Shown: one piece after another, positions 9,112 through 34,217 of the stretch | Position numbering within the stretch: the first letter of the stretch is position 1 | How the letters are laid out: every line of letters begins with the position of its first letter | Virus record (IMG/VR): IMGVR_UViG_3300045988_035499 | Reading direction: 5' to 3' (one strand) | DNA from: a virus | DNA: 64,000 nt | Translations under genes and position numbers: made by a program | Notes under the pieces: generated by a model | What the model saw: only the letters and a program-made list of their open reading frames with translations | What the model was told of the DNA's origin: nothing | Databases searched by the model: none

Positions 9112-12100
9112 TTATTCACATTCTTTTTTACGTTTCTTACCCATTTCAGCGAGATAAGTCATATCTACCACATCTTCAGTAATATCCATGTTGAAAGCTT
9201 CATTTGCAATAGAAGAAGTATCTACATTAGCAAAAGGATCTTCCGTTTCTTGTGAGAATTGTTCTTGCATATCAGAGAATATATCTAACTATTCATTTAT
9301 GATGTCCATAGCTTCAGATCCATCAAATGATTCTTCTAAACTAACATTGACAAAGTCTGATACATCTGTTTCATCATACACTACATTATCTTCAGATAAC
9401 GGATCTATATTAAAGGTAGTATCTACTACTTGCGTATCAGATACATCACCTTCTATTTGCTTCTATGTTCCGTTTATTTTTACCTAAATATTATCTGAAC
9501 TAAGAGGTATAAACTGTTTAGTAAATCTACTTTCATCCTTTAATTTAGGTAATTTAACTCTAGACATTGCAGTTTCTGCTATAACACTATCGTCAGTTAA
9601 TACATTTTCATCAAACGCATTCTAATCAAAAGCTGATATATCCAAACCACCTTTTGCAAATTCATTAACTCTAAATCCATTTTCTTTAATACCTAATTTA
9701 GGTATTCTCTTATAGATTAGTTTAGCTCCTCTTTTACTCTTCTTACCTTCATCATTTACATAAGCTATTTCGCCAATTAATTGATATAATTGGATTGAAG
9801 CATTATATCCGGAACCATTATTTACAGTTATGAATTCTGCTCTTCTAGTTCTATAGTGAGGAACAGCAAAGCTATCATACATTGTAATAGCTTTTCCTCC
9901 AATATTACTTCTAGATTTAGACAATACAATATCATAATCACTACTCTTAGAACGGTCTTCCTATTGTTGTTGGAAAGGATCGTTACTATTAGGTTTAAGA
10001 TTAATGTTATACTTAGGAACTATGTTAGGGTCATCCCACATGTTTCTAGCTATAGTCAATCTAATAGAAGGGAAACTCATAGATTGAGGATCATCACCAG
10101 TTTGAGCTATAGAACTATATCCAGATACATCTCCTCCATTTTTAAATTGGTCTAATACTTCTTTAATATTAGATACATAACCATTATCAATCTTATATTG
10201 AATAGGAACTAAATGGAAGAACGCATTTACTCCTCTTTCATCATAAGAAGTATAATATGCATATTTAACCAAATCTTCTGCAAATTCTCTAACTACATCA
10301 TCAGTATCTTCAAGTAATTGAGCAAAAGCAGATATTAACTGGTTCTCCCTATCATAGTCGTTATTCATTGATGATTCAGATAGAATAATTCTGTCTACAT
10401 TCTGCCCTTCTAAGCCATCTGCTGGATATTCCTATAAATAATTTAATAACTCATTCTTTATAGTTCCATCTTGATTAATAAGATGTGGGAAAGCATCTTT
10501 GTTAAGTAACAGATATCTTTTAAGTTTGGTCAATCTAGAACACATTGTATTCTTACCTACAAACATACCTATAAATTGATCATCCGTCATTTTAAGGAAG
10601 TCAGTATTAGAAGTAGCTCTAGCTCTAATTATACTATCGATCATTCTATTTATATTCTGAACAAACTTCTTATCACCCTGGTGTTTATAGGATATTAAAT
10701 CATTACCATCTGTACCTTTAATGATATCTCCTCCTACAATATTACCCATTACTGAATTAAATATATTCTAGTAAGTCCAAGTTGCAGGGAATGTTTGACT
10801 CTTAAGAATCTTTCTAGCTATAGTAGTAGCATTATATAACTTCTTACTTAAGAATGTATTACTAAAGTAATACTTTAAAGCATCATCTACTTCCTTACCT
10901 TTTATTTCAAATACTCCAGAATTATCATATATGAACGTTTGATATGAATTCACAAAGTTTAACTATAGTGCAAGATTGTTACCAAACTTCTTAGTATCAA
11001 TCTGAGATCTATGTACTAATTCACTAAGTGTTTTAGCATCCATACTTAATTCTTTATAAGCATGTAATACAATAATCTATTGATATAAGAATGGCAAATT
11101 GTCCTATTTTCTATTCTTTAAAGCGTATATAAGACTAGATTCATCAAATACCTATGTCTTATCTATTACTTCACTCTTTATTCCAGGATATGCAGAGTAC
11201 CCAATTTCTTCAGCTAAGCCATTATATTTAGCTTTCCAATTTTGTTTACTTTCACCTTCTGGCAGAGCATCTATAGCTTCCTTAAGTAACCTACCATACA
11301 CATTGTATAATCCGGTTATTATCTAGTTTTCCTACAGATTCTCAGCACCATATACTCCTTTACTATTGATAACTCTATTGGATAACTCTTTTAATATAGG
11401 TTGAGCTAAGAAATAGAAAGTATTCTTACCTTTACCACCTCTAAGTAATAGATTAGTCATATTATAAGTAACCTAGTTAACATTTAAAGCAATGATGTAA
11501 GGGTCTTTAGCAACGTCTACGTGAGCATTAATCATAGCAGATAACCAGTCAAGGATTCTAAATCCATCTTGACCTTTAATAGCATCTAAGTCTCCTAACT
11601 AATATACATTACTATGACTATATATCATATTAAGATGCATTAACTATGTTAATACATGGTTAGTAGAGTTAAGAGCAAAAGGAGCAATACCAGCTTTACC
11701 ACTAGTATACTCTTCTTTTCTAGATTCCTAGAATGAAGGTAATAATTCATAGAAAGGATCTGCTTCTTGTTTACTAGAACTTGATATTAACGGTAATACA
11801 TCATCTTGTAGCATACCAGTAAGAGTATCAATAGACGCTCTAGTCTCAGCCATATTCTTAGTATCTGATACTACTAATTGATAATTCTGTATTATCATAT
11901 TCTGTAACGCTTCAGGACTTTGCTCGCTTACTTTATCATTAGTATATTGAACTATATTTCCATCTGTATCGTAATTCAACATGGCAATATACAATTTATC
12001 AACGTCGAAGTCAGAACCAGTCATGGCTGTAAATTCATCTGGAACTACTATAGTATCACTGAATCTATCAGGAAGTACATCTACTACTTTAAATGAGAAA

Positions 12101-15100
12101 GTAGAAGACAAACCCTGAGTAGGGATACGATAACCAATACCTTGTGGAATAGAATTAGTGCCAATTACATTGTGATCAGTCAACCATTTCTTCATAGTTC
12201 CATAAGAAGTCTGATACTCTTTTGGTACTATATGTCTAAAGAAATTAGTACTCAAAATAACATCCATACTTCCATCTTTATTCAGGAATCTAAGTTTATT
12301 ACCGCCATTAAATGCGCCATTTAACTCTGATTCTTTCATTCTAGCATCGGTTGCTTTTAAACCAAATGAAGACATCTGAATAGCAGAACCACCAGGAGTA
12401 TTAATATCTACTACTTCTTTATTTATAAATGAGATAATTCTACTTTCAATCCATTGTCTACTGCTCTGAGCTGCTAATGGGACAAGTATATTACCATCCT
12501 AATCAAGAGTAAGACCTTTAACAAACTCATCAGACATACCAGAGCTAACAGCCTAACTAACTAAATAGTCCGATAAAGCCTTATTATTCAGTTTACCTTT
12601 ATGGAAGAATCTCTTAATTATTCTCTTATAACCTATGTCAGATAACTAATTGATAGCATCCATAGTCTAAGTCTTAATCTGTTGACCTGTCTTAGTAGCA
12701 GCTTTATTAGCACCATATACTCGGTCGTCTATAAGGTTACCTAAACATATTTTAACAGCCTAAGTACCAAATGAACGGTCGATATGTTCATGTGGATCTG
12801 TATTCAACTGTAAACGTAAATTACGAATATCCTAAACAAATACAGGTAAATCTCCTTCTTTCTTAGTAAGATTAAAGGATTTTTTATTTAAACCCTCTAC
12901 ATTAAAATGTTCATTCTTAGGTCCTTCGTAAGCCTCAAATTTAGTTCTACCACCAACCTTAACAGCAGATTCAAAAGTAACCATATCAATTACTCCTAGG
13001 TCTTCATTATTCATGCGGTCGTATAAAACTTTATTGTCAGCTTTAGCTATTACTTTGAATAATGGGAACATAGCCATCTTATCAAATACGGGAACATTCA
13101 GATTTATATCACTTTCTCTATGGTCCCCAAAGTATACCATCTTTAAAGGCTTAACTACAAGAGCCAAAGTTTTCTGATATAACTCTGGTTTATTCATCCA
13201 TGATTCATCTCCTCCTTCCATTATTTGATAAGCTTCTTCGATAGCATCACTCCATTGTCCTAAAGCTTTCATAATACGCCTATACATAGCAGGACGAATA
13301 TATACAGCAGCGTCAGATTGATTGATATTACCACCTACGATATTTCCTTTATCGTCTCTTCTAAAGTCATACGGTCTAGCGCTAGCATTAGTATAACTAT
13401 CTACGAATTCTTTTTGATTCTTAGTGAGAGAATTATAGAAAGCGTCTTCTTTCTATTTAGTAGATAAAGCTTCTATTATAGCGTTGTCACTTAAACCAGG
13501 ATTCGCTTCACTATATAAGTCACGTAAAATAGAGTTTCGGAATATGCTTTTTAATTCATTATAATAATCAGAACCAAGCATATTATCGGCTAAATGCATT
13601 ACAGTTACTTTGGTATCGTTTTCAGTAGGATTGCCCCAAACAGTTCTAAGATTAGTACCAGTTGATAATACTGAAGACAAACGTTTAGTCTTATCTACGT
13701 CCTTGCCAGTTATTATATCGAAAGTCTAGTTAAAATGTCCTTCTTTAGTAACTTTATATCTCTTGGTTTTTCTACGTTTCCACTTATAATATGCAGGGTC
13801 TCCAGTAAAACATTTCTCTACTTCCATAATAGAAATAGCCTAATTAGCTACATGTGATCCAATTATAGAGAATAATATATCTTGATTTTTAAGATCAGCC
13901 TATTCAGAAGTATACAACTTATTATCTACTTGGGACTCATAATAGCCGAATATATTGTTAGGTATTAGTTTATTAACATACTATCCGTTTGAATATCCTA
14001 GTATACCTCTTCTGACAAGAGCTCGCATCTCCCTCTAAGTAGCGTGCAATAACAAATGATTTATTGCAGAGAATATAGGAGCATCAGGTTCTATGACTTC
14101 TTTATAATTAGGTTTTGGTGTACCTAGTAGCAATACCTTCAAATCCGACAAATACTTCTGAACTTCCTCTGTAGTACCATATTGTTCTAATCTAGCCAGA
14201 TCTTGGTTAATGTTTACGACATCTTCACCTAGTCTTAATTTAGTAAAATACCTGAATCTACCTCCGTTGCCAGTATGATCCATCTTACCATTCTTGATCT
14301 TTCCGTGATAATTATCTACTCTTAAAGTAGGATGTTGCGCAATATAGTCTTTTTTCTAGAAATAATCCCATACAGCATTAAACTCATCTAACCAGTAATT
14401 AGCAAATATATTAAGAGTACCTTGACTAAATCTTCTTTCTCCTATGTAAGTAGAATTTTCAGCTGTTAAATCTTCTCCAACAATAGCTGCGTAATTAGCT
14501 TCTCCTTCATCAGTATATTTACTGGTAAGAATATCTTTTACCATTTTGATACCTGATATACTATACCAAGTCTTCTTATCAGACATAGTGGGTAATATTA
14601 TTCTATCGTTAAAAGTAAGAGTAAGCTTAGCAATATAATCTTCAACAGGAGTAATACCGAAATAATCTCTACTAGATTCATCTATATCCAGTGCTAAGAA
14701 AGTGTGCAATTTAAATTTAGTATTCTTAGCATTAGCTATCAAACTATGTGCAGAGAATGGAGTACTTAATATCTATTGTTTCTTACCGTTAGCATCTTGA
14801 TTAATATTACGTATTTGATCTGTCATATAGTTATTCTCACTAATAGGATAAATCAATGCACCATCTGCTCCAACAACACTAAATTCTTGAGGAGAAGGAT
14901 GTACTTTACCATATGATATTGCCATAACAGCTATCTAACTGTTAGAATTTCTACCAAATGTAAACATTCTATCTAAAGTTCTAGAATATCCACCACTTGA
15001 TGTAGATTTTACACCTATATCTTTAGTTTCAGCTAGTTTAATTAAAGTAGCTAAAGTACCTTCATTAAATCTCTCTGTCTTACTAACTCCAGTACTCTTC

Positions 15101-18100
15101 CAGAAATTATATAGCTTATCAAATTCGGTAGCTCCGACATAGAAGTTATTAAGCATATAGTCTAATGCTAAGTTATCCATAGGAATAGATAAAGCATTGA
15201 ATACATCCAATAAAGTATCCTTTATTTCCTATATCTTAGTATCATCTACTGGTTTACCTTTCTTTATTCTATCACTTACTATTTTAAAAGTAGAACTTAA
15301 TTTACCTCTTCTATCTTTTAAGAATTTAGCAAATTCTGGTTTGATGAAAGGTCTACCGCTATCTGTTCTATCTATAGCATCAGATGCGAAGAACATGCCA
15401 GACCATCTAGCAGGAAGTCTACCTACTTTACGTAAATTATCACTATCTTCTACAACCCAATTAAATTTACTTAAGTTAGATTGTATTTCACTAGCTATTT
15501 CATCTTCAGACTTACCTCTTGTATTTACTTTAGGATGTTTAGTAGTAATAGTGTCTAATTGCACTTTAGAACTCTTTATAGTTATCTCTAACTAAGTTTT
15601 AGTATTATCAGATATAGGTGCTTCTTCCGAAGTAAGAATATCGTATAAAGATTTAAAGAAAGGAATAGTATTGCCTAAATTAGCACTTCTATCTATTATA
15701 TCCTGATACTTGTCTATATCCCATAAGTTCTCCATAATCTGATTCCATACGAAATTGAAATCTTCAGTTACAGGGAGTTGGAACATATCATCATGTACAG
15801 GGAATAACTCTTTAGTAATAACACCATTTTCTTCATTTTCAACGAATTGGTATTCATACTTAGGTATAGAGTAGAAGAATAATTTAGCTCTAAAGCTAAC
15901 GTTATCTTTCTTACTTACTTCACCCTGATTCTTATCCCAATTGTTTTCAGGCTGCTCTCCAGTCTCTACTTTTAATCTAGATTCTTCTTCGTTATCTACT
16001 TTTTCTACTTCTCTAATTCCTAATTGTTCTATCTTCTTGCGAACATATCTTGTAAATATATCTTTATTATTTACTATATCCTAAGCAATATCTACATATT
16101 CGTCAGATATCCAACCAAAGTCTATATTCTACTTTAATCTGTCAAACAATAAAGAAGTATTAAGATTATGAACATCCTCTATAGTCCTAATATTGAATAT
16201 AGATAACGCTCCACTAGTAAGAGAATTAACAGCATGATAGAATACATCTGGGTCAGTTATATGAGGTAATTTAGCTTCTTCTTCCTTTGATAAACCAGGT
16301 ATATAATAAGATAGACCTTCTGGTTTACGGCTATAGAAATCTTCTAATGCTTGCTTAGATGCTTTATAATCCTTAAACTAACCGTCATTTATACTCTTGA
16401 AAAAAGCTCTGATTATATTTCTATGAGAATTCCAGAAGTATAAGGTATTATATATCTTCTTAAAGATTCTAATAACATTGTACAATAAACCTTTACCGTT
16501 TTGATCCTTAGCATAATTACGGAATTCTTCAGCAAGAGCTTCTTCTGCCTAGTCTTTGGTAAGATTTCTAGCGCTTCTCTTAGATTTAGAATATTCTTGA
16601 TATAACTTAGTTCTCTATTGTTCACTCAATAACATTTGAGTTACATAGTGGAATGCTTCGTGATATTCTACACCTGCACCAGATTGTCTAGATAAAGATA
16701 TACGAGGTATTAATTCGTTAGATAATGCGTCCATTACTACGCTAAATAAACCATACGCCTCTTCGTTAGCTCCAAACTTAATCATTTGGTCTGTTACTAA
16801 TATTTGATCGCTATCTATACCTAACTTATCAAACAACCACTTCTTAGCAGAATCTTCATTAAACTTACCTCTACCTTTAATAGTTGATTTAAGACCACCT
16901 AAGAACTTAATTGGAGTAAGAGTAACTTCTCTTTTACCAGTCTTAGGATTGAGAACAATACCCCATTTAAGGTATTGACTTTCTTTCATACCATTATTAG
17001 GTATACTTAAACCGTATTTTTCAAGATTCTCAGGAGTAGCTCTTTCAGCAATCACAACTTTCTTACCACTAGCTGTCTTAGCTTGAGAAGGTTTACTTAC
17101 TTCTTCTATAACCTTATCTTGAGTATTAACAGTGGGTTTAGGTTTATCTTGTTGTTTCTATAATTCTTCTTTATTTATAGCAGCATCATCCGCATATATA
17201 AATGGAGCATAGAATGCATGTTCACCCAAATCTGTCTTTAATATTCCATTGTTAATAGCCCAAGTAATTACTAAAGGAGAATCAGATACTTTTTCAGCTT
17301 TACCATCCTTAAAAGTATAACCTATTTCTTTTAAAGAGAAAGTCAAATCTTTAGAGAATATAGGTATTCTACTGTTTTCATCTTTTACTAGATTAGGAGA
17401 ACTATTAGCTATAGATACTAATAAGTCTATAAATTCTTGAGGGAATTCAGACATCAGTACGTCCTTATCAGTATTCCAGTGTATATTCTATGAAATCTAG
17501 AATACTATTCTCCTCTTTTCAAAATCTGTTAAAGTAGCTAGATTAGTAAATTGTGTACTAAATCTCTTTTCAGTTCTAGGACCATCTTGAGTATATATAG
17601 TAGCATCCTCACTATGGTATCCGTTAACAAAGAATTTATTACCTTTATCGTCAGTATATATGCCTAATTGCTTTCTTACTAAGAAATTATATTTAATTCT
17701 TTCTACTCCTTCTAAACCGTTAGTAAATGTATTAGAACCACTATTAGCTAATAATGATAACAAGAAAGAATCAATTATCTTAGCATTAGAACCTCTTACT
17801 GATGTTTGCCCAGTAATAATATTAAATATTAACTCAGCAGTAGAAGGAGTAATTGGCTTTCCTTGCTCATCTACATTTTGAGTGCCGTCTGCATTGAAGG
17901 ATAATTTAACCTGCTCCGGATTATTTACTCCAGGTATTCTATGCAATTCCTCAGATAACATAATGGGTAATGTAGCAGTACCAGAAGGAGTGTTTTCAGG
18001 TTTAGGTATAAAGTATATTTTACCAGCATAACCTACACCTTGTGTTTCAGTCTTATCTCTAGTAAACATATCATCTATCGAGAAAGGATCAACACCAAAT

Positions 18101-21100
18101 GGACCAGTACCATATCCAAACTGAATATCTCCACTGGTTATTTGTTCAGACATAGCAATGGCATCTTCTGTAATACCAAAATCACTTACTTCGGTTAACT
18201 TTCTAAACTTTGGTAATCCAGCCTCATCTACTTGATTATCAAGCTGACCATTACTTATTCTTATCCCTACAGGTTTAACATGCTTTCTAGCCGTTAATGG
18301 TAATGTTTTAGTAGTAGAATATTCTGGAGCATAAGCCTTAATTATTTTAGCTCTCAATTCTCTTAACTTCTATATCTACTCATCTATTTCATCCTAAGTC
18401 ATTTCCGTATCTCTCATACGGTCATACTGACTCTAATTGATTGCTCTAACAGATGCATTATACAGTTTACCATCCTTCTCTATCATCACGTGAATAGCTA
18501 AATTATCTATAGCACTATCAAATGACATATCATGTTTAGAGGAAGTAACTACAAAGTATATATCATCAGCTGTTGATAACCATCCTGGAATAGCTAAATT
18601 AGCAGCTAATTCACTACCTGGTCTTCTATCAACCTTACCTCCATCTTTACCTATAAACTATACAGATTTACCAGCTACAGTAATAGGCATAACTTCATCT
18701 GTATTAGGTTGAAAGAAGAAAGTATTAGCTATATGTAATCTCCTGAATTTTTTTCTAGCAGATACCCAACCATTAGCTGATCTATTATAATATGAAGAAG
18801 GCCCTTGTAATCTGGAATCAAAATCATATGATTCTTCAAATGCTGATTGTTCTAATATATCTTGGTCATTTACTGGTATGCCGTTTTCGGGATTGCCATC
18901 AGGCATATATACTAGCTAATCATTCTAAGCATCATAAAAAATTTCATCAGATTTTGGAGTATCTTCTACTTCTGTAACATTTACTGGATTTTCTACTTGA
19001 GGAACAATATCTGAAGCTGCAGGAGTATCTTCTACTTTTGTTACTGTAGGCTATTCCGCAGACCCTTCCTCTTCATCCTATGTTGATTCTTCAGCAGGAG
19101 CAAATTGAGTATCATCTACTTCTTCCTACTGTTCTTGAGATTCTTCAGCAGTAGAATCATCTGTCTGCTACTCTTCTACTTCTTCAGCAATATCTGTAGG
19201 TTCTACCGATGTAACTTCTTCAGCTGGATTCTACATCTATACTTCATCTTCTATATCTTGATTAGTATTAGTAACGCCATCCATCTCCACATCAGCTTCT
19301 ACCTCATCCACACTTACTCTATCTTGTAAAGGAGAACCTTCTATAGCTTCCTCTAACATGTTTAGTTGATCTTCTAGACTACTTATCTCCTATTCAGCTA
19401 CCTATACGTCTGGTATAGTAACTTCTTCCACTTCATCCATAGGAGCAACCTCTGGAGCTTTTGTTTCCGTATTAGGAGTTCCTTGTTCTATATCTGCCAA
19501 ATTACCAGTATCTTCGGCTATCTCTTCTCTACTTACTTGCTCTTGATCTTTTTTACGCTGTAAATCTTTCTGAATAACAGACATAGCTCTTTTACGCTGT
19601 ACTACATCCTAGTCAGCAAGTTTATCGTCTTTACTCCATTCTTCATTTACAGAGTCATCATAGTCCTATATAATCTATTCAGAAGTTCTAGTCTTACCGT
19701 TGATTCTATCAGCCTACATTTGAGTAGTAAGTATTTGCTTCTACTGTTCTTCAGTAAGATTATTATAAGTAGGTTTATATAATCTAGTATCTCCTACATA
19801 CTTTCCAGTAGTATAAGCTAAAGCATGAGCAAATAAATCAGCTCTAGCTCCATCGTTAACGTACTTACTTACAGTAGCTACAGATAATTGATCTGCAAAA
19901 GGAATAGTTAAACCAAGGTCAATAACTTGTTCTCCTACTTCTTCTCCTAAGAATCGCTGTATAACTGGTTTGCGTTCCTTTATTTGAGATTCTACATACT
20001 TTATAATACCAGATATACCATCTACATTTACATCTAAATTCTTATCCTCTTTTAGTCTTTGTAAATCTTGCTTTCTAGAATTAAGTTCATCTCTAAGAGT
20101 AAGTAAGTCATTGTAATCTTGAACAGCAACCATTCTGCCCATGAATTCATTAGCATACTCTTCTTCAGATAGTACATTTCTTTCACCCAGTAATTGGTCT
20201 ACATATTCAGATAATTCCTTTTTACTTCTAGAACTAATATCAGATGCAGGTAAATCATCAACTATCTGTCTTCTTCTATCACTACGTTTTTTATCATAAC
20301 GAGCTAAGTAATCTGAATAATGCTGTTTTATTTCTTCTTTTAAGTCAGCATCCTCTCTTATTTTCTGAATAATGCTTTCTATTTCTCTAGTAGATGCTTC
20401 AGATGCTTCACTAGCATTCTTCAATCTATCTTGAATAGATACAGCATTTTTTACTACATATATAAAGTCATTACTGTTTATTCCTAGTTCATCAGTTATA
20501 CTACGTAAAGGCTTATTGTTAGATAATCTTTCTATGTTATTTACTAATCTTATGTCTTCATCAATCATTTCATTAGTAACACCTTCAGGTTTAAATTTAT
20601 CCTTAAGCGTTTCTAAGTTATTGATTATTCTAGAATAACCTTTTCTTCCATCAGAACTAGCAGCATTCATAAACTGCTCTACTTTGTTTTGTCTTTCGGC
20701 ATTACCATAACCATCGGCTATGTAACCTCTTAGGTTACTATCTGTAAGATATTGAGCAGTAGCACTATACACATCAGGTGAACTAAATACTCCAGACATA
20801 AATAATCCAGTAAATCCACCTATATCCATAGACCTACGTAAGTCAGCGTCACCATTCAAATTCTCATCTGGATGAATGCCATAGTATGCCATATGGGCTT
20901 CTCCTGCTAATTTTAAAGCATTTGCAGCCCCCCACAATAGACTATAATCTCCAGCATTATCATACTTACCAGTTCTGTAATAATTACTTACTACTCCCTG
21001 TTGACCTTCTTCAGTCTTTTCCATGAAGTAAGAAACACCTAATTTCTTACCAATATTAGTGAGATTACTTATAGCATTGTATGCTCTAGTTTTACCTCCA

Positions 21101-22911
21101 GGAGTTTTCCAAGCTTTATCTACAGCTCTAGCAATAGTACGATCTATAATACCATCAGCTGCTGCATATAAATCATCCTTGCGTAATCTATCAGTTACAG
21201 CAGTTTCTAAGTTAGATGATATACTACGATTACCTACAGCTCTTTTAGCAGCTTTCTGTAAACCAAAGTAGTTCTTCATATATGAACCACCAAACATAAA
21301 CATACCTTGAGCTAAGTCAGATAACATTAAAGCTTGATTAGTCTGTCTAACTGCATCTAGACCTTTCTGAGAATCATTTACTAACTGATTAAAATTAGCA
21401 TCAGGAGTGATTATATTCTGAGATAAAGCGTTCTCTAATACTTCATAATCTGTCATTTCAGAAGTATCAAAACCTCTAGCTTTTAATTGTTCATCAGCTG
21501 ATTGTATTACACTAGGAAAATTAATTCTCATCTAATCTGCACCTTCTAGTACTCTCTACTTGAACGAATCAAATACTTCAGCTTGAGTTTCTGAATTACG
21601 AGTGTAATTAGTAATAGCAGCTTGAGTAGCTAATTCTGCAGCACCAATCAGTAAAGGAGCAGTACCGCCAGAACCTGCTGCCATAGCAGCTTTAGATGCC
21701 CATTTAGCAGCCATACTAGTACCAAATTGTCCTAACATAGCTCCAAATTCAGAATAACTGGTACCCAATTCTGGTAAGGCATAGACCCAAGATTCTGGAT
21801 TAAATGCAGATATCTAATTACTTTCCTGTTTTTCTCTGAATTCTGGGGATATTTTACTAGGATCGTATAACCAATTGCCATGTTTCAAAGTATGTATCAT
21901 GCTTTGTATCTGTTGATTCTTATCGTCTAAACGTGATTTTGCAACCCTTTCAGCGCTATTGAGTAGTTCAAGCTACTTTGATAAATTGTTGTCCTAATTT
22001 TTACTACTCCACATGTATTCTATCTGGTCTGGAGATAACTAATGAGTTCTTCCAAATATAGCATCGTTTATACCATCATTGGCTAGTAAATGTTTAAAGT
22101 TGTTTCCAGGATTAATATCGTACATATAATCCTCTGCCAACCAGTCAAAACTATAATATTTCCACAAATCCGCAATAGAACTAAACTTATCAGTACTAAA
22201 TAGCTTGCCTGGTCTAGTTTCATAGAATATATCCTATAGATAAGGGTTAGTTCTAGCTAAGTCTTTTAAACCAGGCTAATGATATATAACATTACCATTC
22301 TGATCTAATTGATTTACTCCATTCTCTATGTTCCTAATACTGTTCTATAATTCAATTATTCTATTCTGTGCTGCTTGAATTTGTGTAGGAGTCCAATTTG
22401 TTGCAGTATTAATATTTCTCTACAGATCAACAAGTTCTTGTTTGCTTAATAGATAATTCTTAGCTAAATTAATAGAATTCAGATAATTAGCTTCTCCTTC
22501 TCTGACTTCATTCTATAATCTACTTAACTTAGATTGATCCTTTTTCTCCATAAAACTACGATATACATCTAAAGCTTTAATGTTTCCATCCTTCTCTGCT
22601 TTATTGTACAAACGATCTAATATCCTAATACTATTAGAATTAGGATCTACTTCTTCAGTAGTTTGAAGTAACTCTGGCATACGTCTGGATGTCCACCAAT
22701 TATATGTATCTTCAGCCTCGGCAGAATTATCTTTAGTTACTTCGTTATTGTAGTTTATATCGCTTTCTCTGTCTTCCAACTTTCTTTGGTAATAGTCTGA
22801 CCTAGAATCGTAAGAATACCCATAATCACCTTGTAAGGTGTATTTAGGGTATTCACTAACGAGACTACTTTCTGTATCTTTACCTAGAGTATAGTTCTAT
22901 TGTCTACTCAT
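9112..22911 (-). CDS. giant fusion protein (4599 aa) containing a crAss-type virion RNA polymerase module (DFDVD) plus a zincin motif; TAG read as sense
   Basis: All track fragments from 22513-22779 down to 9622-9924 share one frame. Every gap was scanned and holds only TAG interruptions (about 74). The motif GYRIPTQGLSS...TGSDFDVDKLY (DFDVD at 11998-12012) parallels the beta-prime RxPTLH...NADFDGD motif. HEAFH lies at 16648-16662. An acidic low-complexity stretch spans about 18907-19400, and a Gly/Ala hydrophobic segment about 21556-21768. Bounded by ATG 22911 and TAA 9112. Confidence 0.75.
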
Positions 22912-22915
22912 AATA

Positions 22916-24511
22916 TTATTTTAAATGTAATCTGTATTTTTCAGATTGAGCTTGCAGCATATCTCTAACATCTTGTCCTAATTTTCTTCTATTTGCATGC
23001 AAAGCATCATTCTCAACTGCCTCTAAACCTTGTCTTGGTACAACTGTACTTACTGGAATTCTTAAGTATGTACCTTGTTTAAGAGCTGTATTAACTGAAG
23101 TTCTAGTTTCACCATAATCGTTAGTTGATTCAGTTACTCTTACCTGATCTTCATTGAGATTCACCCAGTCTCCTTGTACTTCTGCTAAATCTTTAGCATT
23201 ATATTTACCCTTATCTATATCTGATTTAGGTATGAAGATATATTTATTGTGGAATATATTTGAACCATCTGTGGTAATATTCGGAGTACCAGCTACTAAG
23301 AAGTTTTTAAACTATCCAGATTCTAAGTCTTCTTGCAGTTTACTGCTACTTCCAATCTATCTGTCCATTAAATTCTCTGCAAGACGTTTTCTAAGTAAGA
23401 ACTCAGAGGAAGAGTTACCGACTCTCCATCCTTGAGAGGTCATTTTACCAGTTTGAGTTCCTTGTGCAGTTAATATCTCGTTTGCTTCTGCTCCTATACC
23501 ACTACTTAAAATTCCAATAACATCGTTAATAGCACTATTTAAACTATTATTAGTTTTAGCACTAAGAACAAACATGTCGTTCAATTTTTTTCTAGCATCT
23601 TGAACTGTAGGGGCATCTTTCAATGCGTTAGTAAAGGTATTATCTGCTGTTATTTCCAATTGATCTGTAAGATTGAGAAGACCTCTTTGCTATTCTTCCT
23701 AACCTGGATTTCTTCTAGCTAAAGCTACAGACAATGGATCGCGTTGAACAGAATTCCAAGTAAATTCTCTACCAGCAGTGATAATTTGTCTATTGAGTTC
23801 TTCTACTGCCGCTTCATCACTAATATCAGGGTTCTGTAATTTAATGATTTGCAGGTTTTGTGTGTAATGTGGTGAAGTAACGATACTAGACCAGTTTTGT
23901 CTCAGCTGCGCATCAGTATCTTCATCTGCCACGCCAGTGTACAACAAACCATTTTTACTACCAAGATATCTTCCCTTAAGGTTATCTACAAACGGTTTAA
24001 CCATATCTACTGTAGACTTATAAGCTAATGGTGAAACATCATTGAATATACCTACACCCGTTGTGTCATAATTAGTGAAATCTACATCATGTAGTAACGG
24101 ATTATAACCACCGCGCAACATAAGTTCTTGATTAGCTTTCTATCTAGCTAGCATTCCTTCTCTACTTTGCTTCAGTTCTGATAACGTTGAATAGTCTATA
24201 TTATTAAGCATACTCTGTAGAGTTGCTCTGTTAGCAGCGTCTTTTAAATAATCTGGGTTGTTGATCATCTAATTAATAGCCCCCTATATATCTTGTCTAT
24301 TTGTAGTTAAGTTATACCAACGTTTTGTATCAATGTCAGAAGGAGACGTAAATTCACCAAACTTCTATAACTATGCTCCAAACTACTAAGCAGCCTAGTC
24401 TACTGCTTCCTTCTAAGTTGCACCTATTCTATATAAGTTACTAAAATCTATAGGTACGTATGTATTCAGTATTGGAGCTTCTGCAGCTCTATCAAATCTA
24501 TTAGCCTACAT
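22916..24511 (-). CDS. structural/cargo protein of unknown function (531 aa)
   Basis: Fragments 22916-23164, 23357-23659 and 23699-24121 are co-framed. The frame stays open to ATG 24511, which is preceded by GGAGGTAATT. The second codon is TAG. Ends in TAA. Confidence 0.65.
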
Positions 24512-26451: not shown

Positions 26452-29400
26452 TTAAATTAATGAATATCTATAAGTAGTTGTAATTTGTGGTATTTCAAAG
26501 GTATGTTCATTAAGACTATCTATATCATAATCACATATCATATATTTACCCCTCATCCTAGCAGGCAATGACAGTTCGTCTTCATTCTTATCTGCTCTAG
26601 GAACTGGAATTCTATAAGTATCTTCCCTGTAATCCATACCAGTAGTATAATAAGGAATAGCGTTAGTATGCTGATCTTTAGTATAGAAGTCTATGTTCTT
26701 TATTATACCGTCTGTAACATTATTTCCTGCCTCATCCTTGAAATGACCTTGAAGTCTGACATTGTCAAATACTTTAGTGTAAGGCGTATCTTTGTTAATT
26801 ACAATGGTTAACTTAGCATCCTTATCAATAGATTCTAATCCTTTTATATCCTTATTATTTATAGTATAAAAGTTCATATCCTTCATTGTTACGCACCTAT
26901 TTGACAATGGTAACGACCATTGAGGGGCAAAAGTATAGAAAGATGTAAAACGTCCAATCTACTCGTTGAATATTAAAGACTTATCTAATAACCTAAACCA
27001 TACTTCATTATACTTCTTATCAAATAATGAGGTAACGTAACCTTTCTTTCTATTAGTTAGATTACTATTCAGGTATGATTGTACTTGCTTCTCCTTAGAT
27101 ATCTGACTTACAGCTCCAGAATAACTACATATTTCATTTTTATCATAATCATACCAATAAAGTACATTGTCAGAATTTACTATACTTCTATCGTTTATAA
27201 CAGAATCTCCATTAGTGTTAGTAATATAGTCATATCTACTTAGAATACCACCAGTACCTAATACAAGTTGATTAGCATTATCATCAGTAACTAACGATCT
27301 CTCATTGACAGATGCTATACCAACTCCAGTATCTTGGAAATAGAACAGCCTATCCTTAAATACTTTAAGATTACTGATATCACCCCATTGATTATCTACA
27401 TCTAAGTAATCAGCAACCTTGAATTTACTCCAGGAATCTATTACTTCGTTGTTAGTCTTAACTTGAGAACTTAGTATTCTATTAGGTATAGTTATATTAA
27501 TTCTTTCTCCATACTCATTGATATAATAATGTTCAGCATATATAGAACTAGGCACATACTTCTTAGTAGTCTACTATGTAGAGTATACAGAGTTATATAC
27601 GTAGTAAGGTCTATCCTATGCATGATACACACCTTTCTGAGTAGGCTCTAACTGCATATGGGAATCGATGTAATTATCACTAGTATAGGTTCTATGAGCC
27701 ATGCTGCCATTAAACAAGTTCATATTTATACTGGATTCAAACGGTATATAAGCTCCCATATACCTTCTTCTGTACTGTGCATCTTCTTCATCGTTAGCCT
27801 AGAAAGTAAACATATTAGCGTAATCTAATACATTCAAGAAGGTATCTCCTCCATATACATAACATGAACCAGAGTTCTTATAAGCATTAGTAGTTATGTA
27901 TACAGAATTCTATCTAGATGCATACGTATTACCACCATATGGAGCTGTTATGCTTCTTTTAACATTAAATACTGGCAATGCATTAATAGAATGTAATTCA
28001 TTAAAGTTAGGATCTAATACTCCGCTAAATCTACTATTGTACTTATCTAAGTTCTCTGTCTATATAATTATACATGGTCCAGCTGCACCAAGTGTTACCT
28101 ATTGATTATTTGTATCAAAGTTAGACATGGCATAGTTAGTATAAGTTCTTTCTCCAACAGTAACTCTATAAGGAGTTACATCATGATAAGCATTATATGG
28201 TATATCTGACGGATATCTTGCATCTCTAATTGGGATGTTTACAGCTGTATTAGCTGTATTCTTATATTTAGGGTAGTAATACTTTGCTATACTAGCATTA
28301 TACGGAATAGGATTCCAGTCTTTATCAGTACACTGTAAATCCATTGTAAGTTCTCCGTCTTCTCTAAATACAAAGTCACTCCAATTAGATACCTATTTAA
28401 TGCTGCCATTATACTGTAATACTCTATCTGCCTGTGCAAAAGTATAGGCTAACTAACTCTCAGGTAAGCCTTTTCTATTTACTCCTGTAGGAGCAATAGG
28501 AGACATATATGTACATATAGGATCTAAGTATGTAGAATCTTTGAAATACTTTTCAAAATCTGCCTAAGCTACACATATCTCAGGGGATATTATTCGTAAA
28601 TAGTTTTCTACATAAGTAGGTTTAGGAACCTTATCTGTCTTCTAATAAAACCTAATATAGTCTTTACCTGCTACAGTATTGTTTCCATAAGTCCACGTTT
28701 TAATGTTCTCCTTATGATAAGTAAGCATATAAGCAGGACGCATCTCTATAGAACTATCTAACTCACTACCGTGACCAGCATCAGAGTCTTCCTGAATTCT
28801 ATATTCGTATAAATTGCTACCAACACATTGAGTAATAATAGATCTGTCTAGTTCTGTTCTATCACATCTTACTATTTCATAAGCTACTGTGCCTTTAGGT
28901 TTATCTTTAACTGTAAACCTGATACCTAAAGCTTGACCAATCAAAGTATTATCCTAGTATACAAATGGGGGGATCTAGTCAGCATGAGGCATCTTAATAT
29001 CACCTATCCAGTATACTGGAGACGGTATCATCTTATTGTTATAGAATACTATACCAAAACGATACACTTCATCTCTTTGATAACCTTTAAAGTAAGCGGA
29101 TATATAAGGATCAGCATAATTTGGTATTCTAGTCTGAGTACCAGATTGATTAAATGAAATTGCACCAGTAGTAGAAGTACCTACATTAGTAGCAGACACA
29201 CTATTCATAATTCTACTTCTAACATTCATAGAAGTATTATGATCTAGTTTAAGCTGCTTCTATTTCTCACTAAGTTCTATAGGTATAGTACAGAAATTAT
29301 ACTCTATGTTAGTACCGTAACCTCCTAGTACGTTATTATCATTTACCTTCTTACCGTATATGTATCTAACATCTTCTGAAGTATTAGAGTACTCCATACT

Positions 29401-30585
29401 ATTATATGGGTTTATACAGTCATGGTTATATGGTACTGTAGTTAAATCAGAATCAGTAGTTATTGTTAACTTACTTGAAGTATTTGCTGATTCTAATACT
29501 CCAACTCCATATTGATTGAATCTGTACGCTCTTGCATCGAATTCTCCTGGATCCCATGTATTATCCTGAATATTGGCTGCAAACAACCTATTGTCCATTT
29601 TAGCTAAAGTATTGGCTATAAATTGATATCCGGTTAATGCGTTAAATTCCTCTAAACTCAGTTCACTCAACACAGAGTTACCACTATCTACATAGTGTAG
29701 CTCTTTCTAATCCTCGGTAATATCTAATTCATCTACTATAATTATCTTAGCTATTTGACTATTATCATTATATCTTATACTGATAATTCTTGCTCTTTGA
29801 AAATCTTTTACAGTTATAGGAGCAGATAGGTTACACGCTTTGCCAGAAGATGTATCAGGATAAGAGCCTTCATACTTCTAACTGTCTTGATTAGTACTAC
29901 TCTAAGTTAAATGTATCATTTGACTCAAAGGAGACGTAACAGTTTCTGTACCATGCACATTGAATAATTGATAACAGTACTATACTACACCAGTAGGCAA
30001 ATTACCAAAACTTAAATCATTAACCTATAGTGGAGGTAGTTCTGCAGAAGGAGTCATATCAATAGCTTCAGGATTTATGATATTACCTTCATCATCTACT
30101 AAGTCAGAACCTTCAGAGTACTTCTGATCCATTATATTAAGTATCTTAACAGGACTCTCTCCATCAGTAAAGTATATCTTTATATTCTTTTCAGATTCAT
30201 AATTACATACGATACTTATATTAGGATGTTTTTCTATATTTTCTGATAACTTTAGATCACCTTGACATACTACTTGTATAGTAAGCATATTAGTGTCAAA
30301 ACCAGATATCCTATATACTCTATTATACCCATTAGACATCTTGGTTATTACTACACCGTATTGATCTATTGTAGCAGTACCTATCACTATCTCATCTTTA
30401 TATAAAGAATTCCAATACTTCCTTACACATTCTATATTCTATAGTACACCCGTAGTACCACCATCGTTAGTAATGACACGCACATTCTCAGCATAGCGAT
30501 ACTGCTCACTAGGGAGTAAATTGACATCTGTATCCAGATTCATACCCCCATTAAATGTATTTACTTGTGCTGTATTACTTATCAT
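26452..30585 (-). CDS. large tail (muzzle/nozzle-type) structural protein (1377 aa)
   Basis: Seven track fragments (26452-26907 through 30025-30387) share one frame, and the gaps contain only TAG. Bounded by ATG 30585 and TAA 26452. The function is inferred from size and position only. Confidence 0.6.
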
Positions 30586-31291
30586 AATTTATTTTTTTAT
30601 CTAAAAATTTCCAAATAAATCCTCCAGCAGTCTTACTTCTACCATGTAAACAGTTACTTATATTTGCTGCAGATATTCCACATTTCTTAGAGGCGTCGTA
30701 TTTAGATTGATATTCATTTATTAACACATCATCTACGGTATATTGCCCTACAGCTTTTCTAGTACGACTACAGTTTGAATATCTAATAATTTTACCTATA
30801 TTATCAGCTTTATCAAATGACCACTAATATCCTTTGTACGACTTCTTACGACCATCACATATAGCTCTTACATTGTCTGTAAACCCATTGACAAATTTAG
30901 CTGCCTGTTTAAGATTTTTAAAAGATTGTATATACTTTCCAGTTAAATCATATTGATGCACAGGCGCTCCATCTACTCTAGCTTCATTATAGAACGCATA
31001 CTGCTATATATATTTATTCTCTAAATAGTGAAGTGTATCTATATTTTCATCGCAATGTTCTAATATGATATAACTAAATTTGTCAATTCCTATCTTATTA
31101 AAGTCACATTGTAATCGTTCATTTGCGTGTTTATCATTTTTAAGATAACCTATATGAGTTCTTAAACGTCTCCTTAGATTAGTAGTAGATCCAATATACA
31201 TATGGTTATTCAAATCATTTCTTATTGCGTATACTCCGGACGTATATGGTATATGCTTATAAAAATCATCAGTTAATTTAAATGTTTCCAT
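30575..31291 (-). CDS. GIY-YIG homing endonuclease 1 (free-standing, 238 aa)
   Basis: GVYAIRND...YIGSTTNLRRRLRTH...RLQCDFNKIG...ILE is a GIY-YIG core. The C-terminus carries helix-turn-helix-like repeats (AAKFVNGFTDNVRAICDGRKKSYKGY.W, GISAANISNCLHGRSKTAGGFIWKF). It contains 2 in-frame TAG (31004, 30824). The ATG at 31291 follows the upstream stop directly. Confidence 0.8.
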
Positions 31292-31292
31292 A

Positions 31293-32225
31293 TTAATAAT
31301 TATTCTAGTTATATATTGTCTACTCTTCTCCGGTTGTACTAAAAAACAGCGAATGGTCATCAATTTCTGGATATAACTTATTCCAGTCATTCTTAATACT
31401 CTCTATGTCGTCTACTCCAGGCATCATAGCCTCAGCGTATGCTTGTTTACGATAGAAGTTATAAGAGTTACGTATATCATAGTAGTCTCCTTGACTTATT
31501 TCTCCTTTCAATTTTTTAGGATACATAAGTTTCATAGTAACATACCAGTAAATAGCTTCTTTATAAGATTCTAAATCTGGTATCATTGGCATTGAATCTT
31601 CATCAGTATATATAGCATAGTACTATATTTTAACAAAACCCATAGGAACATTAGTATTAATAAATCCAGGTTTTGTAGTATACTGTAGATCATTACTGAA
31701 CATTGTAGAATCTGCATGTCCCGTTGCACTACCAACATACTTACCATTAATAGTAGGAGTAGTGGATTGATTTATCAATGCAGCTAAAGTCTAACGTAAA
31801 CTAGTATCTTCATTCAGTTTATCTAATGCTTCTCTATCTGTAGTAAGATTAAACATATTCTTTACCAAAGGTAGCATGGCTGCATCTTTCACAAACATCT
31901 TAGGTTTACGTCTGCCACAGCATTTATCATGAGCAACACCAAAACTTGATGTAGACTTCCTCATAGGCATCCACCCGCCACAGTTCTATGTAGAGAAAGC
32001 AACCTACCCTAACTTATAAAGGTCGCAAGGCAACGCAGCTTGATGTCCTATAACTGGTAGTATTGCAGTCTTATTATCGTACTACTGAACAGCTCCTATC
32101 TTTAATACTCCCTCCATTATCCATTCACGGATATCTGTTATACGGATCTAGTCTTCTCTAAGATCCAGATCTGCTATTACTTTAGCAACTATAGTTGCTG
32201 AACTAATCATTCGATTATTTATCAT
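31293..32225 (-). CDS. Cys-containing structural protein of unknown function (310 aa)
   Basis: One frame is open from ATG 32225 (alternative ATG 32210) to TAA 31293 when TAG is read through, and includes track ORF 31320-31592. Contains CGGWMP...HDKCCGRRKP. Confidence 0.6.
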
Positions 32226-32973
32226 AATTGTATCTCCATTTAAAGCCAAAAGCAGTCTTTTTCTATCCTCTACACACTCTGTTTATAGCCGACCTATTAC
32301 TTATAGAACCGCATTCTTCGGCTGCCTAGGTCATATTTCGATACGTACATATGTAGTTATTATTTAAATCTAATTTATCTACTTTAATCCCGGACGGCTT
32401 TCTATTTTTTACTATATTAAAAATACATCTGTTATCCCTAGTATATTTCCACAGAAACCCTTCACAATTAGTTAATTTACCATTACAACAATCAGATATT
32501 CTTGTTCTAATACTGCCGTATCTGTTCATATCTATGTGTCTAGCAGCACAAGCTATACTGTCAAATGTACGTATATATTTACCTTGTAAGGAGTATTGAT
32601 CTACTTTCTATTTAACTTTATTGTATTTCAATTTCGGCAATTTAGAGTACTTGCGACTAGCATATCTGTTTCCGTTATATTCTGGTCGCATGTCTAAATA
32701 TTTCTGTTCTAACATTAATAAGGTATCATGTATAGGCTAACAAACTTCCAATATGCATATTTCAAACTTATCTTCTCCATATTTATTATAAGCTCTCTAC
32801 AAATAAATAGAGTGATGATAGTTCTTACGTAATTCACTTCTATGTTTAATAAACCTACGTTTGAAATTATTAGTACTTCCTATATATTTATGTCCATTAA
32901 TTATATTACGTATCATATATATACCGGCAAGTTCTTGTGCACTATTTATCTAATTAAACTTCAGGGTAATCAT
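32215..32973 (-). CDS. GIY-YIG homing endonuclease 2 (free-standing, 252 aa)
   Basis: The core reads GIYMIRNIINGHKYIGSTNNFKRRFIKH...SIYL(TAG)RAYNKYGEDKFEICILE. The C-terminal repeats are SIRTRISDCCNGKLTNCEGFLWKY and SAINRVCRG(TAG)KKTAFGFKWRY. It contains 6 in-frame TAG. Ends in TAA at 32215. Confidence 0.8.
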
Positions 32974-33415
32974 GCTCTCTATTAAAAATTATTTTTGCCA
33001 AAGTCCTCTTGTTGTCTCTACTTGCTACAAACTAATACTTACTTTTGTTTGTTAACAGGCAGTTTTTTTTGCTCCAAAAAAATCTGTATTTGTAATAATT
33101 ACTATGGGCGTTAAGCAGATATACAGGCTTACCAGTTTCTCTAGTAGCCTTCCAATCCCACCTAAGACTCTTACCTGTAAATTCTTTAGGCTAATGTTTT
33201 ACTATCTACAAAGTACCAAGCCTACAAGGAAGTTTTACCTCTTTACAATCTAACATGATAGAGTCTCTGATATATTTAAAGTAATCTGTAAGTATTGCTT
33301 TGAATGTCTTCAAGTCTATGTCATACTAAGTACCCTACTCTATATAGTTTTTATAGTTAATATAGAAGTCTGCCATAGTGTAGCATTTTCTGTTATATTC
33401 TAATCTCTCTTTCAT
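32954..33415 (-). CDS. hypothetical protein (153 aa)
   Basis: The ATG at 33415 shares a base with the upstream TAA (TAATG). The frame is open to TAA 32954 when TAG is read through. The product looks protein-like (…LPCRLGTLQIVKHQPKEF…YLLNAHSNYYKYRFFW…). Confidence 0.5.
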
Positions 33416-34059
33416 TACTTAGTAGCATATCTATTCTGCGTATCATCATGCGCATTATTGGTATCATCACTAGGCATTGCTAGCATTATTCTCAACTCTC
33501 TTTCCATTATCATCTATGTGATAGTTGGTATCATTGCAGCAGGTATAGGGAAGTCACTGTCTGGGTCAAAACATGCGTTTAATTCTGTAGGGTCTTCAGC
33601 TATAACATCTACACTTATGTACTCTAACTAATTAGAGTCTCCTTCTACATACACTTTGTTATTTTTCACCCAAGCAATATAGTCTTTACAAGTGGCTTTT
33701 CTATACTTCTGTAGTTTAGCCTTAGTGTGACTACCTAACTAAATAATGTTTCCAAACATATCCCTTACTGCTATAACACCAGGTCTAAAGTTAAAGTCTA
33801 TTAACTTTGGTAATTCCTTATCACCTACATATGTAAAGTGTCCTGGACTGTTCTCTTCTCTATCCAAGTGAATAGGTTCTATAGTAGTAAGATAGAGTTC
33901 ATTGACATCTCTACCTTTATCTATATCTTGCTTTATTAACATAGCTCGATATGATAATATCCATTTTTCTATTTGTGCTCTACTTAAATGCTCAGACTCT
34001 GCAATATTATTATTGCGAGCAATTAGCAGAACATTATCAACCATTTCATTTAATGTCAT
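33415..34059 (-). CDS. hypothetical structural protein (214 aa)
   Basis: Track ORF 33739-34146 continues through TAG to TAA 33415. The likely start is ATG 34059 (MTLNEMV); the track start at 34146 is a TTG. Confidence 0.55.
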
Positions 34060-34183: not shown

Positions 34184-34217
34184 AAAATAAAAAAGGTTGA
34201 TCTTATTGATCAACCTT
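34184..34217 (-). terminator. rho-independent terminator
   Basis: A perfect 10-bp stem (AAGGTTGATC/GATCAACCTT, 34193-34217) with a 5-nt loop is followed on the minus strand by TTTTTTATTTT. The TAA of the upstream gene lies in the loop. Confidence 0.75.

Follow-up and report, generated by a model that had tools for sequence, protein, structure and literature searches.

In bacteriophage T4, the seg and mob genes are intergenic homing endonuclease genes (HEGs) that overlap upstream open reading frames (ORFs), segC by 20 bp and segF by 11 bp, and the free-standing HEGs of this phage cleave in a neighbouring gene, away from the insertion site, with co-conversion of the intervening markers (PMC2988022). 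A comparable arrangement was analysed here in a 64,000-nucleotide stretch of viral DNA (IMG/VR record IMGVR_UViG_3300045988_035499; the whole stretch is referred to as the window), which comes from a crAss-like phage whose late genes read TAG as glutamine (Gln). Two genes, HEG1 and HEG2, lie among its tail genes, the former directly before the muzzle protein gene (MUZ) and the latter directly before the gene for tail ring protein 1 (R1). Comparative analysis makes it highly probable that both are free-standing GIY-YIG HEGs of the I-TevI/Seg type, distantly related to each other and each located at its own site of the tail module.

The locus resembles the T4 genes segC, segF, segG and mobE in several respects. 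As in T4, the HEGs are free-standing between conserved genes without an intron, ORF overlaps (in T4 also UAAUGA at mobE) suggest translational coupling, and flank co-conversion together with presence/absence variation among close relatives is indicated, here by sequence comparison. Unlike in T4, the host is a crAss-like phage with Bacteroidota-type composition, the ORFs contain recoded TAG (Gln), and the 3' end of the HEG enters the downstream gene and borrows its stop. The overlap architecture and the co-conversion signature mirror those of seg/mob, the recoded TAG and the borrowed stop amount to neat details, not to new biology, and current concepts are left unchanged by the locus. It does provide a clean natural illustration of the homing cycle: empty, filled, doubly filled and decaying alleles occur in near-identical genomes with visible, putative co-conversion tracts. 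Phages of the crAss-like type are the most abundant group of human-gut phages.

I-TevI of the T4 td intron (1MK0, 1LN0) also has an N-terminal GIY-YIG domain and a C-terminal NUMOD/helix-turn-helix DNA-binding region, and its binding at the insertion site with cleavage upstream fits the upstream-only diverged flanks described below. In contrast to HEG1 and HEG2, it is intron-encoded; only the catalytic domain aligns (E=1e-7 to 1e-12), and the zinc-finger linker of I-TevI could not be detected in either protein. Among crAss-like phages, gp22 of cr4_1 (YP_010112552.1), annotated in RefSeq as a "homing endonuclease", belongs to the HEG1 clade and lies, like HEG1, between a "tail tubular protein" (R1) and a "virion structural protein" (MUZ); it differs from HEG1 in sequence (43% identity) and does not overlap MUZ. 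HEG1 and HEG2 are new alleles of lineages already annotated at this locus in RefSeq crAss-like genomes. Finally, an HEG of Agate phage carries in-frame recoded stops, for which a delay of HEG production to late infection has been proposed (bioRxiv 10.1101/2021.08.26.457843); that gene is intron-borne, sits in an early gene and has TGA read as Trp, whereas the genes studied here are free-standing in a late structural operon with TAG read as Gln.

Insertion of two endonuclease genes at former ATGA overlaps

The two genes and their parts were located as follows (aa, amino acids; nt, nucleotides).

30575-31291, minus strand: HEG1, GIY-YIG homing endonuclease gene, 238 aa, 2 in-frame TAG (ORF, Pfam and PHROG)
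30992-31237, minus strand: GIY-YIG domain of HEG1, aa 19-100 (Pfam), followed by two NUMOD1 and an I-HmuI NUMOD-like module
31004-31006 and 30824-30826, minus strand: in-frame TAG codons of HEG1 (TAG read-through)
32215-32973, minus strand: HEG2, GIY-YIG homing endonuclease gene, 252 aa, 6 in-frame TAG (ORF, Pfam and PHROG)
32692-32925, minus strand: GIY-YIG domain of HEG2, aa 17-94 (Pfam), with NUMOD modules after it

The GIY-YIG family (PF01541) was matched with 48.5 bits by HEG1 and 47.8 bits by HEG2 at a cut-off of 22.6. NUMOD1 (two stretches) and an I-HmuI_NUMOD-like module were both above the Pfam cut-offs in HEG1; in HEG2, NUMOD1 reached 28.1 bits (cut-off 22.8) and the I-HmuI_NUMOD-like match 26.0 bits, slightly below the 27-bit cut-off. 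Repeat modules of the form G(G/Y)(F/Y)xW(K/R/S)(F/Y) were found in both proteins, and their best PHROG matches were homing endonucleases. The GIY-YIG core and the repeated DNA-binding modules recognised in an earlier note on this DNA, made from the sequence alone, are thus present in both genes, its counts of two and six in-frame TAG were reproduced, and the translations of both end in NYDK followed by TAA, as it had described. Alignment with 1MK0/1LN0 revealed that both proteins keep the GIY Tyr, the YIG Tyr, Arg27, His31 and Glu75 (I-TevI numbering), and a YN motif (FYNEA, EYNGN) may correspond to Asn90 in an uncertain alignment register. The ratio of non-synonymous to synonymous substitution rates (dN/dS) against orthologues was 0.19-0.28 for HEG1 and 0.10-0.12 for HEG2 (overall range 0.08-0.28), low values that indicate selection for a functional protein. 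Further copies of the family could not be found elsewhere in the 64-kb window.

From 5' to 3' on the minus strand, the gene order is R2, g153, HEG2, R1, HEG1 and MUZ, and the four flanking genes are as follows.

33415-34059, minus strand: tail ring protein 2 (R2), 214 aa, first gene of the run (Pfam CrAss_Ring_2, E=3.8e-78)
32954-33415, minus strand: g153, conserved, 153 aa (phrog_12177), found in each of the 80 related loci and overlapping the start of HEG2 with its last 20 nt
31293-32225, minus strand: R1, 310 aa, 8 TAG, complete, between the two HEGs (CrAss_Ring_1, E=4.7e-115)
26452-30585, minus strand: MUZ, 1377 aa, 21 TAG, complete (crAss_MUZ, E=6.6e-302, and crAss_MUZ_C)

The 80 related loci were obtained by an IMG/VR scan with R1 and were re-annotated with TAG read-through. 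The g153/R1 junction, which holds HEG2 in the window, is termed site A, and the R1/MUZ junction, which holds HEG1, is termed site B. Loci L001-L003, whose R2, g153, R1 and MUZ share 95-100% identity with those of the window, lack both HEGs, and in them g153/R1 and R1/MUZ overlap by ATGA. Alignment with these insert-free relatives defined the empty sites at both junctions, ...CCAGAAGT^ATGATAAATAATCGA at site A and ...TAGAACAG^ATGATAAGTAATACA at site B, and delimited the inserted DNA.

32226-32957, minus strand: insert at site A, 732 nt (alignment with HEG-less relatives)
30586-31302, minus strand: insert at site B, 717 nt, replacing CAG (alignment with L001-L003; boundary ambiguous by 1-3 nt)

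Each cassette was thereby shown to be placed exactly at a former ATGA stop/start overlap, HEG2 at g153/R1 and HEG1 at R1/MUZ, and to bring a new stop for the upstream gene while leaving the native ATG of the downstream gene intact. At site B, the R1 tail changes from ...NqNR* in the empty allele to ...NqNNY* in the window (q, Gln encoded by TAG), with the new TAA 1 nt before the HEG1 ATG; at site A, the TGA of the ATGA that ended g153 is replaced by TAA. HEG2 starts 16 nt within the coding sequence of g153 and stops 11 nt inside R1, so that the 759-nt HEG2 ORF exceeds its own 732-nt insert. A selfish gene could in this manner be accommodated in a tightly coupled operon without breaking it, as the ATGA is replaced, the upstream gene is re-terminated and the HEG ends inside the downstream gene.

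Origin of the shared junction

A 16-nt junction common to both HEGs and identical 11-nt overlaps with the downstream genes had been pointed out in the earlier note, and both were confirmed at HEG1/MUZ and at HEG2/R1. The 16-mer, AATTATGATAA(G/A)TAAT, occurs exactly twice in the window, both times on the minus strand, and the ATG within it opens MISNT... in MUZ and MINNR... in R1.

30574-30589, minus strand: right junction of HEG1, AATT + ATGATAAGTAAT, with the MUZ ATG and the HEG1 stop TAA (30575-30577); 11-nt overlap
32214-32229, minus strand: right junction of HEG2, AATT + ATGATAAATAAT, with the R1 ATG and the HEG2 stop TAA (32215-32217); 11-nt overlap

The R1 and MUZ starts are the most similar of 861 gene-start pairs in the window; they agree at 8 of the 9 nt after the ATG and, from position -4 to +12, at 15 of 16, and the repeat is therefore more than AT-rich noise. 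The empty R1 start (ATGATAAATAAT) and MUZ start (ATGATAAGTAAT) already exist in HEG-less relatives, and this presence of ATGATAA(A/G)TAAT identifies the shared 12 nt as the native 5' ends of R1 and MUZ. AATT is the only portion of the 16-mer that belongs to the inserts, and it is also the commonest context directly before a start codon (10 of 42 window genes). The 16-mer was thus shown to be composed of similar native R1 and MUZ starts (12 nt) and a common AATT start context. The suggestion that the endonuclease 3' end donates the downstream start could not be upheld: ATGATAARTAAT is present in the empty sites, and the Pfam matches of both proteins begin at model position 2 (R1 residues 3-308 on CrAss_Ring_1 positions 2-271 of 272; MUZ residues 6-1236 on crAss_MUZ positions 2-1223 of 1224). 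Nor was a different conserved start codon found in the HEG-less relatives, where the same R1 and MUZ ATGs are present.

It is the downstream gene that gives each HEG its last codons (Y-D-K) and its TAA stop. The HEG ORFs have no stop of their own inside the inserted DNA; they cross the host ATG and end at an out-of-frame TAA within host codons 3-4, where T-ATG-ATA-A(A/G)T-AA is read as TAT GAT AAR TAA. Because the stop is supplied by the host start, the (Y/N)DK* ending recurs in unrelated HEG lineages located at these sites, as seen in L043 (...EGQYDK*), L083 (...KYSYDK*), L085 (...RYSNDK*) and L093 (...KYYNDK*). HEGs that enter in the other frame (L061, L081) terminate at ATGA. A separate peculiarity of L061 is that MUZ is present there, and only there, as two overlapping ORFs (5972-6487 and 6484-10173), which suggests a frameshift or an assembly error.

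It is conceivable, with a low probability, that the 12-mer ATGATAA(A/G)TAAT serves as the DNA-binding site of the HEG family, with the nuclease cutting upstream as in I-TevI; in that case, the likeness between the starts of R1 and MUZ would have enabled related HEGs to colonise both sites and to move from one to the other. The exceptional likeness of the two starts among the 861 pairs agrees with such a site, as do the two HEG clades found at the "wrong" site in the tree described below, which imply site switches, and the upstream-only divergence, which fits a cut upstream of a junction binding site. In the clade L055-L064, all six HEG-bearing loci have the R1 start ATGATAA[AG]TAAT, and four of five HEG-less loci (L055-L064, L079) have ATGATGAATTCA. 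However, this correlation comprises only about five independent lineages, and L057 lacks the HEG yet has the ATGATAAATAAT start; it may reflect target or resistance alleles, or simply linkage. Further points speak against a specific site: the 51% HEG1 relative lies before a MUZ start with ATGACAAAC, other family members lie before R1 starts with ATGATATATAAA and ATGATTACAAAA, an HNH HEG of unrelated architecture has the same junction style before R2 with a different sequence, and starts encoding Met-Ile-Asn/Ser-Asn are easily reached by chance in an AT-rich genome. The fuller proposal, in which the family would bind tail-gene start codons, cut the preceding gene and carry no stop of its own, with the cassette and 11 target nt inherited as a unit, is similarly doubtful. 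If it held, paralogues could hop between the sites owing to the near-identity of the R1 and MUZ starts, and a variant start, for instance ATGATGAATTCA, would act as a resistance allele.

A third 11-nt overlap of two late genes could be observed at 24501-24511, where the second codon of the downstream gene (22916-24511, minus strand) is TAG (ATGTAGGCT) and an AAGGAGG-like motif, unusual among the starts of the window, stands in front of this gene.

Lineages, occupancy and diverged flanks

HEG1 and HEG2 are old paralogues of separate clades. The duplication suggested in the earlier note is not a recent one, as the two proteins are 32-33% identical and each has closer relatives at its own site. 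HEG1 has relatives of 96%, 51% and 43% identity at R1/MUZ, the last being gp22 of cr4_1, and HEG2 has orthologues at g153/R1 of 72-73% in L055/L056/L063/L064 and 60% in L081. A neighbour-joining tree (without support values) placed the HEG1 clade entirely at site B, and the HEG2 clade with two neighbouring clades entirely at site A; two further clades occur at the site opposite to that of their nearest relatives, implying occasional switches between site A and site B. In a profile scan, family relatives were found immediately ahead of the R1 or MUZ gene in many crAss-like phages, with R1 identities as low as 46% and usually with a 4-26 nt overlap with the downstream start, so a location next to start codons holds for the family as a description. 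A search of IMG/VR with the single HEG1 sequence gave no match, and the close copies came only via a large protein database.

Four occupancy states could be distinguished in closely related genomes. L001-L003 have neither HEG and the window has both; L090-L092 have HEG1 only, as a 96% identical copy at the same site. L093 and L094 carry a different HEG of 285 aa at site A together with a HEG1 allele that is otherwise almost identical to that of the window and has lost 264 nt in frame between two AATG repeats. Residues 53-140 are thereby missing, with the equivalent of Glu75 and half of the catalytic domain among them, and this allele (L093, 3001-3453; L094, 2012-2464) looks like a decaying HEG. 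Altogether, at least five HEG lineages, one of them HNH, occupy the three junctions of the R2-R1-MUZ module. The HEGs explain local mosaicism in this tail module and should be masked when the module is used for typing or phylogeny of crAss-like phages.

Further variation was seen in more distant loci. The HNH homing endonuclease gene (192 aa) stands upstream of R2 in L004, L011, L018, L029, L050, L052 and L068 (approximately 3334-3913), which are other Loutivirinae-like genomes, and is absent from the window; it ends 11 nt inside R2 (GATAATGACGCTTAA), as HEG2 and HEG1 do in R1 and MUZ. In L043 (5930-6658) and L046 (5930-6580), HEGs of two clades occupy R1/MUZ, and their left junctions are nearly alike (...AATAG[AG]CCATAATG), which points to replacement of one HEG by the other; the 5' end of MUZ also appears rewritten in L046.

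Compared with L002/L003, the background in this region amounted to 0-5 mismatches per 100 nt. The bin upstream of HEG2 (33000-33099) had 25-28 mismatches per 100 nt and the one upstream of HEG1 (31300-31399) had 21, and the bins directly downstream of the HEGs (32100-32199 and 30500-30585) had none. The divergence defines two tracts.

32954-33115, minus strand: diverged 3' end of g153 adjoining HEG2, putative co-conversion tract
31293-31355, minus strand: diverged 3' end of R1 adjoining HEG1, changes mostly synonymous

Identity to HEG-less and HEG-bearing relatives varied along the flanking genes as follows.

g153, nt 1-300: 296/300 to HEG-less L002; 231-232/300 to HEG-bearing L055 and L063
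g153, nt 301-400: 73/100 to HEG-less L002; 70-75/100 to L055 and L063
g153, last 62 nt: 43/62 to HEG-less L002; 52-53/62 to L055 and L063
R1, nt 1-800: 790/800 to HEG-less L002; 788-794/800 to HEG1-bearing L090 and L093
R1, nt 871 to end: 35/55 to L002 (last 55 aligned nt); 63/63 to L090 and L093
MUZ, first 300 nt: 296/300 to L002; 295-299/300 to L090 and L093

The protein is largely kept within the tracts, as in the R1 tail (DHSLFFSTTGEEqTIYNq versus DHDLFFSTTGDEQIIYNq). These upstream-only tracts of approximately 55-160 nt look like co-conversion of the flank together with the HEG. The cassettes were probably acquired by double-strand-break repair, that is, by homing from diverged donor phages, in which the endonucleases would cut HEG-less genomes within the 3' end of the preceding gene, at a distance of approximately 30-160 nt from the insertion point. 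Cleavage on this side would account for the restriction of the donor-like, mostly synonymous divergence to the upstream flanks. By eye, an I-TevI-like CNNNG motif could be seen approximately 20-25 nt upstream of the empty sites, namely CAAAG at site A (TAGAG in the window), with nothing comparable at site B; this search is not reliable and was not used as evidence.

Several points weigh against the overall explanation given here. The mechanism rests wholly on comparative sequence. The g153 tract at nt 301-400 is 68-82% identical to everything compared, and its donor is not in the sample. The upstream-only divergence could also reflect changes that created the HEG start and expression signals, or it could be due to unrelated recombination, as L001 and L002 differ in where the divergence begins. 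In cr4_1, the HEG ends at a stop of its own, 2 nt ahead of the MUZ ATG, and overlap with the downstream gene is accordingly common rather than universal. Moreover, no suppressor tRNA was present in the 64-kb window, which leaves the timing of expression considered below dependent on literature from related phages.

Improbably, the HEGs could be no longer mobile and be vertically inherited, possibly domesticated nuclease or DNA-binding genes of the tail operon, their absence from relatives being due to deletion. Purifying selection (dN/dS 0.1-0.3) would equally fit a function that benefits the host, occupied sites are found across very divergent crAss-like phages, HEG1 alleles with internal deletions exist, and Barth et al. 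(PMC10448857) noted that bioinformatics alone cannot show active homing. However, the HEG-less relatives have perfect ATGA overlaps without a scar, and deletion would not yield the dense synonymous divergence upstream of HEG-bearing alleles in genomes that are otherwise 98-99% identical. The four occupancy states in near-identical backgrounds and the replacement of different HEG lineages by each other at the same junction likewise speak against this reading.

Location of the HEGs within group I introns, or as interruptions of one ancestral gene with the flanking ORFs as exons, has a negligible probability: GIY-YIG enzymes with NUMOD modules are classically intron-encoded and RefSeq notes on relatives mention an "intron endonuclease domain", but no Rfam family, group I introns included, reached the gathering threshold in the whole window, only chance matches to small nucleolar and long non-coding RNAs and no group I intron appeared at E<=10 over 30000-33600, and the inserted 717-732 nt are all ORF, so that a ribozyme core would not fit. 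Interruption of a single gene by a HEG was ruled out, since R1, MUZ and R2 are distinct full-length Pfam families encoded by separate adjacent genes in 80/80 related loci. The view of the earlier note that the HEGs are free-standing rather than intron-borne is consistent with all of this, as the genes on either side are complete and directly adjoin each other in HEG-less relatives.

Recoding, expression and the surrounding window

The genomes closest to the window among named phages are human-gut crAss-like phages, for example cr115_1, cr53_1 and cr4_1, the last of which is classified in Crassvirales, Suoliviridae, Loutivirinae, Buorbuivirus (NC_055893). At the positions of window TAG codons in R2, g153, R1 and MUZ, orthologues have CAA 599 times, TAG 546 times and CAG 233 times, the next codon being found 132 times; these positions are thus mostly CAA, CAG or TAG, and TAG is therefore read as Gln (code 15). 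This agrees with published proteomics of crAss-like phages (PMC9523058).

The HEGs are adapted to this code, as the earlier note had proposed, and their use of TAG for Gln is close to that of the neighbouring genes: as a share of all Gln codons, TAG reached 0.22 in HEG1, 0.60 in HEG2 and 0.31 in other late genes. The TAG in ...YLqRA... is aligned with the Gln of I-TevI and of orthologues. Copies of the HEG family have no TAG in non-recoded crAss-like phages and 1-9 TAG in recoded ones; HEG sequences track the code of the host phage, which fits the earlier proposals of recoding-delayed HEG expression. If the standard code applied, translation of HEG2 would end after 7 residues, and that of HEG1 after residue 95, before the YN motif and all DNA-binding modules, and active enzyme is therefore expected only when TAG is suppressed. 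The in-frame TAG codons might in this way restrict production of the endonucleases to late infection, when TAG is being suppressed. ARAGORN detected no tRNA genes in the 64-kb window, which is part of a genome of approximately 100 kb.

Every junction in the run from R2 to MUZ is an overlap or a 1-nt gap, and no terminator-like site was found between R2 and MUZ, so that the HEGs most likely share a transcript with the tail genes and are translationally coupled to them. The tight overlaps would keep g153, HEG2, R1, HEG1 and MUZ coupled in one late transcript, and insertion would have preserved the coupling formerly given by the ATGA overlaps. A sigma-70 promoter scan returned 29 sites where 25.9 were expected, which is chance level, and promoters of Bacteroidota or of phage RNA polymerases lie outside the coverage of the tool. 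A strong terminator-like hairpin with a 10-bp stem and a T-run (34193-34217, minus strand) is located at the end of the gene upstream of R2 and may mark the start of the R2-g153-HEG2-R1-HEG1-MUZ transcription unit.

With TAG read-through, the minus strand becomes a continuous array of long ORFs across the window, in which ORFs of 4599, 1637, 1419 and 1377 aa each contain tens of in-frame TAG. The plus-strand gene block at 128-4142 has 0-2 TAG per gene, in contrast to the TAG-rich late genes of the minus strand, and this difference fits an early/late split in code usage. The two largest ORFs presumably encode large virion or cargo proteins of the kind that is typical in crAss-like phages.

9112-22911, minus strand: giant ORF, 4599 aa, 74 TAG (TAG read-through)
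4196-9109, minus strand: giant ORF, 1637 aa, 34 TAG (TAG read-through)

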